17,398 nucleotides of DNA from a virus (taxonomy: Duplodnaviria > Heunggongvirae > Uroviricota > Caudoviricetes): positions 1 to 17,398 of IMG/VR virus record IMGVR_UViG_2778261177_000007. The stretch is one strand, 5' to 3'. Below, piece after piece: positions 14,423 to 16,258 of the stretch. Every line of letters begins with the position of its first letter. Position 1 is the stretch's first letter. The position numbers and the translations under genes are program-made. Under the pieces are notes generated by a model. It worked only from the letters and a program-made list of their open reading frames with translations, searched no databases and had not been told where the DNA came from.

Positions 14423-14827
14423 GTGAACTTCCCACAAGATGGCATCAAACTGCATCGCGGTAACTTCACCGCTATCGGTCGGCAGATCCAGCCTTATCTG
14501 GAGGACGGCAAATGCTTTCGCATGGTGCTTAAACCATGGCGCGAGAGACGCAGTCTTTCCCAGAATGCACTCAGCCACATGTGGTACAGCGAAATCAGTG
14601 AATACCTCATCAGCAGGGGTAAAACGTTCGCCACTCCAGCTTGGGTAAAAGATGCTCTCAAACACACTTATCTCGGTTATGAAACCAAAGAACTGGTTGA
14701 TGTCGTAACCGGTGAAATCACCACCATTCAGTCATTACGTCATACCTCCGATCTCGATACCGGAGAGATGTATGTCTTCCTGTGTAAGGTTGAAGCCTGG
14801 GCGATGAATATTGGCTGCCACCTGTAG
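14423..14827 (+). pseudogene. ninB: NinB-like (Orf-family recombination mediator) gene, 3' end truncated by IS insertion
   Basis: GTG start with strong SD (GGAGGTGA); RSLSQN motif at residues 43-48 in register with lambda NinB RSLDQN (41-46) and other collinear similarity (recall). Native sequence stops at 14822; the last codons and the stop come from the IS inverted repeat. Confidence 0.6.
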
Positions 14828-14830
14828 TGG

Positions 14831-15598
14831 TCAAGTAATACTGGCCACGGTTTTACAGTAAAAATGGTACCTGTTCTCGGACTCTTCCGGAGTCAACCCA
14901 CCGTTATAATGGTGAGGTCTGACACTGTTGTAGTAGTTCAATATGTAATCATTAATTTGCTGCCGGGCCTCGTCCTTGTCGACGTAACCATTCGCTGGCA
15001 CCCATTCTGTTTTCAGACTGCGGAAGAAGCGTTCCATTGGGCTATTATCCCAGCAGTTTCCCCGCCGACTGACACTTTGCTTTATTCTGTAACGCCAGAG
15101 AATTTGTTGATATTTCAGGCCTGTATACTGGCTTCCCTGGACGCTATGGAACATAACATCATGTGGTTGACCACGCGTCTCATAGGCCATCCGCAGGGCA
15201 TCGCTTATCAGTGCAGTATCGGCATGTGCGGACAGACTCCAGCCGATAACCCTGCGGGCAAAAAGATCCATCACAACCGCCAGATAGCACCAGCAATTTC
15301 CGGCCCAGATATAGGTAATATCTCCACACCATACCTGGTCTGGCTCGGGGACAGCAAACTGGCGCCCGAGCAGATTCGGCAAGCAGGTATGCTCCTGACG
15401 GGCATTTTTGTACTGATGTTTTCCGGGCTGACAACTGCTCAGATTCAGATGTTTCATCAGCCGCCCGGCACGGTAACGGCTCATCGGGACGCCGTTTTGG
15501 GTCAGCATGTCAGCCAGCGTGCGCGCCCCCGCAGAGCCCCGGCGTTGGTTCCACACCCGGCGTATTTCACTGCACAACCTGACATGCACCGGATTCAC
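14831..15598 (-). CDS. IS3-family transposase OrfB (DDE catalytic domain); the frame is open upstream to the slippery site, so an OrfAB fusion by -1 frameshift is expected
   Basis: Contains WCGDITYI (first D), HSVQGSQY and the conserved [19 protein letters not shown] segment with the catalytic E and K. Coordinates are the ORF-track ORF from an internal GTG; the functional frame extends to about 15748. Confidence 0.85.
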
Positions 15599-15696
15599 CG
15601 TATCGCGTCGTTTTTGCCAGTACCGGTAACTGCTGCGGTGTATTCCCAGAGCAGAACACAGACTGACAACGGTGTGGCTGCCACTGAGTCTGGCAA

Positions 15697-16044
15697 CTAT
15701 CGTGAACCGTTCAGCGAGTCGGACATCAAGAGTGCAGTAGCCTTTTTTAATATCGTATTTTGTTCCTCCAGGCGGCGAACCTGGTTTTCCAGCTCGCGGA
15801 TACGTTGCTGGTCTGGAGTAATCGGTGTGGCAGAGGGGGCAATCCCCTGGCGCTCTCGTCTGAGCTGACGTACCCAGCTCTCAAGAGTGGTAGAGCCGAC
15901 ATTCATCGATTCACTGGCTTGTCGATATGAGTAGCCCTTATCAACAATCAGTTGCGCACATTCCAGTCTGAACTCGGGGGTGAAAGTACGTTTGGTTTTC
16001 TTGTTCATTAAGTCACCTGTTTTGTGTTGAGGTGAGAATATCAC
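15697..16044 (-). CDS. IS3-family transposase OrfA (HTH/leucine-zipper protein)
   Basis: 115-aa product resembling IS911 OrfA (…[19 protein letters not shown]…[17 protein letters not shown]); likely true start at the internal MNKKTKRTF. Confidence 0.85.
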
Positions 16045-16080
16045 CTTTAATCAGGTGGCCAAACTTACTGTGCCACTACA

Positions 16081-16258
16081 GATCGCAACGGAGGAAGAAA
16101 ATTCGTTGCTGGAAGCCTGGAAAAAGTATCGGGTGTTGCTGAACCGTGTTGATACATCAACTGCACCTGATATTGAGTGGCCTGTAAGCCTGTCAGGGAG
16201 TAATCATTGGGATTATGCCGCAGTACGTCGTATGCAAGAACGTTCTGCGGTTGGCTGA
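16081..16258 (+). other. Orphan ORF fragment between the two IS elements (possible remnant of a nin-region gene)
   Basis: The 67-aa ORF-track ORF starts at a GTG inside the IS inverted repeat; only the part from 16081 is non-IS sequence ([24 protein letters not shown]...). No own start or SD. Not in frame with the ninB 5' part across the IS. Confidence 0.3.

Follow-up and report, generated by a model that had tools for sequence, protein, structure and literature searches.

The locus studied here raises the question of why an insertion sequence (IS) that cuts a lambdoid recombination gene carries no target-site duplication. It lies in the viral record IMGVR_UViG_2778261177_000007 (IMG/VR; Caudoviricetes), of which we analyzed positions 1 to 17,398, and this whole 17,398-nucleotide (nt) stretch is called the window below. 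The initial annotation described a ninB-like gene interrupted by an IS911-like element with nonmatching flanks and proposed an IS-mediated deletion or inter-IS recombination. This proposal was right in kind, as the missing duplication is real and the flanks come from two distant genes. We found that the IS marks the point where an internal deletion joined two distant parts of a lambdoid prophage at icd. Taken together, the deletion, both of its breakpoints, the missing duplication and the loss of all late genes are, in our judgment, practically certain.

The gene on the left is a truncated ybcN, as shown by its NCBIfam match and its alignment to YbcN of Escherichia coli (E. coli) A3. Its open reading frame (ORF; 14423..14827, plus strand, 134 codons) runs into the IS at 14823, as was originally noted. 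Bases 14423-14822 are ybcN-derived and amount to 133 codons plus 1 nt; that is, 134 of 151 codons are kept. Codon 134 begins with the C of ybcN and is finished by the IS bases TG, which gives Leu as in intact ybcN. The last two codons and the stop had been attributed to the IS; the TAG stop is indeed IS-derived, but only the two bases TG of codon 134 are. The truncated product lacks the final 17 residues, TIPQSCEFQLLRDKQEA, of the intact 151-residue YbcN of E. coli A3. The C-terminal helix of lambda Orf takes part in DNA binding (Curtis et al. 2014, PMC4118853).

The product scored 241.9 bits against NCBIfam NF007281 (PRK09741, YbcN; cut-off 164) over profile positions 1-134 of 151, whereas its score against Pfam NinB (PF05772), 21.8 bits, was under the gathering cut-off of 23.8. 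The gene is 96.5% identical at the nucleotide level to orf151 of phage 82, and on sequence it is classed as ybcN of the phage 82 orf151/DLP12 type. YbcN is a highly diverged member of the Orf/NinB family of recombination mediators with 16% identity to lambda Orf, and it binds single-stranded DNA and SSB; it is classed apart from PF05772 and was tied to lambda Orf by PSI-BLAST and fold recognition (PMC4118853). Because YbcN is placed in the Orf/NinB family, "ninB-like" is acceptable as a family label, but the gene itself is ybcN. A PDB sequence search with full-length YbcN as the query gave no match even at E values up to 10; therefore, the link between YbcN and lambda Orf rests on the weak Pfam match and the literature.

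The IS occupies 14823..16080 on the minus strand (1258 bp, TG...CA ends) and lies between ACC (left flank) and GAT (right flank), which match at 0 of 3 bases; thus, no target-site duplication is present. Its boundaries were set independently by full-length copies on E. coli plasmids (98.8-99.4% identical) and by chromosomal copies (92% identical) that begin and end at identical bases, and the window's IS ends coincide with those of five independent copies. Perfect 3-bp duplications occur at these same boundaries in three sister copies: GAT/GAT in L001, where the IS is inserted elsewhere in ybcN, GAA/GAA in L015 and CTG/CTG in L016. Since sister copies duplicate their target at the same boundaries, the missing duplication in the window is real and does not reflect a boundary error, and the original statement that ACC and GAT are no direct repeat holds. 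We also moved the boundaries by one base per end, as C...G also pairs. The flanks then read CAC and ATC, still without a duplication, and the independent copies place the ends at TG...CA. As an internal control, the adjacent IS3-like element carries TCG on both sides. The missing duplication is the signature of a rearrangement.

The right flank identifies the second gene involved. Beyond the breakpoint, intact ybcN goes on as TGACTATTCCGCAG..., and the window goes on as GATCGCAACGGAGG..., which corresponds to tfa from codon 155 onward. In silico removal of the IS failed to rebuild ybcN, whose 3' end does not resemble the right flank. This flank had been taken for the out-of-frame rest of the ninB-like gene, but it is the 3' end of tfa (16081..16258, plus strand; codons 155-194 of 194), recognized by its match to Pfam Caudo_TAP (PF02413; E=1.5e-17, only profile positions 90-129 of 131) and by alignment to intact tfa. 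It is 96.8% identical in nucleotides to the last 40 codons of the intact 194-codon tfa of E. coli 82.0311, which places the right breakpoint at tfa codon 154/155. Relative to the closest tfa allele, a 1-bp deletion after 16185 replaces the ...WPVKPVRE-stop ending by a 23-codon extension that ends at 16258. In the comparators, a homologous full-length tfa follows stf; the window lacks stf as well as 154 tfa codons. As stf and these codons are gone and the end is frameshifted, the predicted product of 16081-16258 is counted as a gene remnant and not as a functional Caudo_TAP member.

This tfa remnant has stayed where it belongs. After in silico removal of the downstream IS3-like element together with one TCG, the tfa remnant, the intergenic region and the next gene were colinear with E. 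coli 98-3133 (97% over 891 bp from tfa to the McrB-like gene, near-perfect downstream of tfa). E. coli 98-3133 carries intact tfa, followed by the same McrB-like/McrC pair, icd' and the chromosome. The tfa remnant therefore still occupies its original position as the right end of one and the same prophage.

We then considered how much DNA had been lost between ybcN and tfa. As the closest icd prophages, those of E. coli A3 and BCE049, are themselves deleted, the interval was measured in the intact phage PhiR26_1, where both genes stand in prophage order. Alignment of the two flanks to PhiR26_1 placed the ybcN breakpoint at 13952 and the tfa breakpoint at 43719, with 29,766 bp between them. This interval contains ybcO, rusA, ylcG, Q, porin, S, R, Rz, bor, Nu1, A, W, B, C/Nu3, D, E, FI, FII, Z, U, V, G, T, H, M, L, K, I, J, lom and stf; the equivalent interval in the already eroded A3 prophage is 9.9 kb. 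BLASTN of the PhiR26_1 interval of 29,766 bp against the window gave no match, and neither did BLASTN of the 9.9-kb A3 interval. The material gone between the breakpoints comprises the ybcN 3' end, ninE, ybcO, rusA, ylcG, Q, the porin, lysis, terminase, head and tail genes, J, lom, stf and 154 tfa codons. The loss amounts to about 30 kb for a complete ancestor, and to at least about 10 kb for one that had eroded beforehand. The loss had been ascribed to part of the nin region only; in fact, the right breakpoint lies inside tfa at the far end of the prophage, and about 10-30 kb is gone. The prophage had also been called probably defective, which is borne out and understates the loss: the early region is present, its genes being identified through 98.9%-identical relatives, and Q, the lysis genes and the morphogenesis genes are absent.

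The other end of the prophage shows the same state. Contigs that encode the exact 134-residue product continue through the IS, tfa', the IS3-like element, the McrB-like gene and McrC into the chromosomal genes ymgL, ycgX, bluR and bluF, with no Q, lysis or virion genes. The identical scar was present in dozens of independent isolate and metagenome assemblies, including draft E. coli, on contigs of up to 463 kb, and the scar-bearing copies show lineage-specific single-nucleotide polymorphisms (SNPs) inside the IS. The two junctions always occurred together: exact-protein look-ups of the two junction ORFs gave 24 and 17 independent contigs to read, one set per ORF, and no intermediate with one junction only was present among them. 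Neither junction was found in 5,426 complete E. coli genomes, and an IS-free ybcN-tfa joint was likewise absent from these genomes. The window's left junction had 0 matches in one-genome-per-species contigs. Of the predicted ancestral or reciprocal junctions, neither the IS/ACC-ybcN 3' junction nor the tfa-GAT/IS junction had a match in metagenome or viral contigs, and the former had none in genome contigs either; as no positive control accompanied the metagenome and viral scans, these nulls are weak.

We infer an ancestor at icd with the order int ... O-P-[adhesin, esterase]-ybcN-ninE-ybcO-rusA-ylcG-Q-lysis-head-tail-J-stf-tfa-[McrBC-like]-attR, into which the ISEc31-like element (named below) would have inserted once, in ybcN or in tfa, with a 3-bp duplication. 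A later transposase-driven adjacent deletion would have removed the DNA from one end of that IS to a second site in the same prophage. The product would be one IS with one old flank and one new flank, and hence no duplication. What is left is a locked remnant that retains the early region, the adhesin and esterase, and the McrBC-like cargo, with Q, lysis and virion genes lost; the IS copy may have acquired its catalytic Asp-to-Val change later. A deletion is supported by the distance between the two flank genes, which are 29.8 kb apart in PhiR26_1 and 9.9 kb apart in the A3-type prophage, and by the order of tfa and McrBC-like genes, with which prophages of this icd family natively end on the right, as 98-3133 shows with an intact tfa.

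We give an adjacent deletion from a single IS copy, as opposed to recombination between two copies, roughly an even chance, and we lean slightly toward it, with recombination close behind. The lean rests on the IS seeming to be single-copy per genome and on a precedent with IS150, another IS3-family element. In the long-term evolution experiment, as described by Ngan et al. 2024 (PMC11708052), 14 of 14 duplication-less deletion events involving IS150, with sizes between 14 bp and 48.9 kb, were adjacent deletions after a prior insertion at the site. As to copy number, several short-read contigs pass through the ISEc31-like element, yet stop at the IS3-like element, which suggests that the former is single-copy in the carrier genomes. 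With a single-copy IS, one insertion and one deletion are more economical than two insertions followed by recombination.

Several points weigh against this preference. Adjacent deletion and recombination of two direct copies give identical structures, which sequence cannot separate, and the single-copy status of the IS is deduced from assembly contiguity. The ancestral state was not found in complete E. coli genomes, in the collection scans or by exact-protein look-ups. In addition, related ISEc31-type copies strike ybcN and adjoin tfa at other sites in other strains: in seven complete E. coli genomes, a 92%-identical relative interrupts ybcN at a different position and is flanked by a GAT duplication, and in other genomes it abuts a DLP12 tfa. 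As both genes are struck elsewhere, it is quite conceivable that one prophage was hit twice.

Homologous recombination between two directly oriented IS copies, one in ybcN (ACC) and one in tfa (GAT), would have excised one copy and the 10-30 kb between the two, and the hybrid IS left behind would have mismatched flanks. We regard this as a serious contender, although somewhat less than an even bet. Recombination between copies is a classical cause of a duplication-less IS (PMC11708052), both genes are demonstrated targets of the 92%-identical relative, and both flanks resemble ordinary insertion sites. However, an IS that seems to be low in copy number would have had to enter one prophage twice, independently and in the same orientation; neither single-insertion state turned up in any genome among the sequences searched, and the carrier genomes appear to hold only one copy.

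Less probable by far is that the ybcN-tfa deletion came first or simultaneously, through illegitimate recombination or a double-strand break, and that the IS was captured at the break or joint without a duplication. The window structure is formally compatible with such capture. IS5 and IS481 elements at the center of large deletions or duplications without a duplicated target have been described, and insertion into DNA breaks was proposed for them; in the same study, ordinary adjacent deletion accounted for all IS3-family (IS150) cases (Ngan et al. 2024, PMC11708052). A normal insertion into an existing joint would leave a 3-bp duplication, whereas 0 of the 3 flank bases match, and an IS-free ybcN-tfa junction was absent from the 5,426 complete genomes. 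We therefore consider capture improbable; if true, it would be a natural-population example of a disputed route for an IS3-family element, with base-resolved flanks and a duplicating sister IS adjacent. That there was no deletion at all has a negligible probability: decay of the duplication of a simple insertion is irrelevant because the right flank is tfa and not ybcN, and repeat-induced misassembly of unrelated IS-flanking contigs, although the window may derive from a draft assembly (L011, GCA_002230545.1, 100% identical to window 4423-17398), is excluded because many independent assemblies, dozens in number and with contigs of up to 463 kb, carry the same structure with their own SNPs in the IS and with both arms at the expected places relative to icd and to ymgL, ycgX and bluR.

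The element itself was also characterized. Its terminal inverted repeats (14823-14848 and 16055-16080) match at 20 of the first 26 positions, with the ends TG at 14823 and CA at 16080. On the minus strand, orfA (15697-16008) matches Pfam HTH_Tnp_1 and orfB (14831-15598) matches Pfam rve, rve_2 and rve_3; an A6G slippery motif for -1 frameshifting (15742-15748, minus strand) lies within the 3' end of orfA. TG...CA ends, a helix-turn-helix orfA and an rve DDE orfB in 0/-1 phases and the A6G motif mark an IS3-family element, and NCBIfam transpos_IS3 gave 267.7 bits (cut-off 160). OrfB has 91.0% amino acid identity with a locus whose annotation reads ISEc31 family, and 58.7% with one labeled IS911 family. 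In usual ISfinder practice, isoforms share roughly >95% of nucleotides or >98% of amino acids; at about 59% amino acid identity in OrfB, the element is not an isoform of IS911. The label "IS911-like" thus holds for the shared IS3 family but not for the nearest relative, and judged by these comparisons the nearest named element is ISEc31. Most RefSeq copies of the IS are labeled only "IS3 family transposase". The label ISEc52 in H14 was considered as a name and rejected; it belongs to a different, nested element.

In the window copy, codon 153 of OrfB (15140..15142, minus strand) is GTC (Val); in the other IS copies compared it encodes Asp. The triad therefore reads D93, V153, E189, with spacings of 60 and 36 residues, and the second Asp of DD(35)E is replaced. 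The motif is HSVQGSQY in the window and HSDQGSQY in other copies (HSDLGSQY in L015). Asp153 is kept in five independent copies (L001, L002, L015, L016 and L017). It is also kept in L008, which has the window's own junctions and three other plasmid-like (ancestral) bases; this indicates that Val153 arose after the deletion, or that L008 was converted from another copy. As the second catalytic Asp of OrfB is replaced by Val, the window copy is probably transposition-dead. A 334-codon ORF (14864-15868, plus strand), antisense to the transposase genes, is called as a gene in L027 and is most likely spurious.

The neighboring IS3-like element is a simple insertion on the plus strand, 10 bp downstream of the tfa stop. 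It begins at 16269 and continues to the window end (16269..17398); of its total of 1160 bp, the last 30 bp lie past the window end, up to L011:13006. The left copy of its TCG duplication is at 16266..16268 and the right copy, just past the window, at L011:13007-13009, and its empty site CACTTTCGAGAGTG is present in E. coli 98-3133 (L018). From its OrfB, 28 residues are missing, the catalytic Glu region among them. Many short-read contigs break at this element; therefore, it appears to be multi-copy in those genomes. Judging from their transposase genes, the ISEc31-like element and this neighbor both look like fossils.

The left arm of the prophage (1..14822) carries int, xis, exo, bet, gam, kil, cI-like, cro-like, ydaT-like, O and P, followed by an adhesin gene, a hydrolase gene, a 33-residue ORF and the truncated ybcN. 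Positions 1-14824 are 98-99% identical to icd-adjacent prophages in 28 complete E. coli genomes, and the gene annotation was taken from E. coli A3. There, icd is followed by int, xis, ..., exo, bet, gam, kil, cI-like, cro-like, ydaT-like, O, P, inverse autotransporter, alpha/beta hydrolase, 33-residue ORF, ybcN, ninE, ybcO, rusA, ylcG, quuD, porin, essD and further genes. The chromosomal part of L011 is 99.7% identical to E. coli BCE049, which identifies the host as E. coli.

Two cargo genes lie between the replication gene P and ybcN. One encodes an inverse-autotransporter adhesin of the intimin/invasin type (8987-12895; 1302 residues), with IAT_beta and many Big_1/Invasin_D3 repeats by Pfam; the other, convergent with it, encodes an alpha/beta hydrolase (esterase) matching BD-FAE in Pfam (12932-13975, minus strand; 347 residues). 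The adhesin gene contains two tandem 349-bp repeats (10296-10644 and 10653-11001) that are about 98% identical. The repeat number differs among strains; the product has 1183 residues in L005, and the gene is split in two in L006. PhiR26_1 has other accessory genes at this position, one of which was named PD-lambda-1 by the depositors.

At the right end, just past the window, tfa is separated from the chromosome by an McrBC-type pair (L011:13307-16380). The McrB-like ATPase has 651 residues, of which only residues 369-645 match McrB; the 368-residue N-terminal region is unrelated to it (Pfam DUF8425, weak nSTAND3). The McrC beside it scores over its equivalog cut-off, and most of this segment is present in about 289 complete E. 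coli genomes. In L011, around 17015-17026, the partial icd duplication (icd', attR side) is absent, as is iraM/ymgK, which is present in some relatives, and the matches flanking the join that lacks icd' overlap by 12 bp. The prophage is probably a remnant unable to excise.

Other prophages at icd have decayed along different paths. In the sister prophage of E. coli 98-3133 (L018; O157:H16, 14852-24228), a deletion joins P' to 'stf, and in those of A3 (L003) and BCE049 (L019), a deletion fuses essD to J. The right-end cargo also varies among them, with McrBC-like genes in some and sitABCD in others. These observations point to one prophage family that was eroded repeatedly and independently. 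Together with e14, the sitABCD-carrying A3 and BCE049 prophages and other defective icd prophages, the window prophage shares the locus, with int by icd, a 98-99% identical left arm and the habit of a cargo-keeping remnant, whereas its own lineage lacks the icd' attR copy.

The prophage also resembles DLP12 of E. coli K-12 (ybcN-ninE-ybcO-rusA-ylcG-quuD ... tfaD) and phage 82, with which it shares the ybcN allele family; its relatives show the same nin-region order. DLP12 is likewise IS-ridden and defective, and in other strains, DLP12-like prophages have related ISEc31-type copies within ybcN or next to tfaD. In contrast to DLP12, the window prophage lies at icd, carries the adhesin and esterase between P and ybcN, and has lost ninE to stf in one IS-bounded deletion. 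The likeness to the IS150 deletions of the long-term evolution experiment is that an IS3-family element sits at a duplication-less deletion joint of tens of kb (PMC11708052); in the window, however, the event occurred in a natural population and is fixed in a lineage, the IS is ISEc31-like, and adjacent deletion is only the slightly preferred route. With IS911 and ISEc31, the window IS shares the IS3-family features of TG...CA ends, a length of about 1.25 kb, orfA/orfB with an A6G -1 motif, an rve DDE domain and, where insertions are intact, 3-bp duplications, and it differs from both in having Val for the second catalytic Asp.

The case is an ordinary instance of IS-driven prophage erosion, a well-known process; it matters little beyond annotation and opens no new question. 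For annotation, the gene should be read as a truncated ybcN rather than ninB, and the 67-codon ORF after the IS as a tfa remnant. The scar shared by dozens of assemblies is usable as a lineage marker. The prophage is an immobile remnant that has lost all lytic and virion functions and retains an adhesin, an esterase and an McrBC-like restriction system. That is, the locus provides a clean, base-resolved example of how IS elements erode a prophage while its cargo persists.

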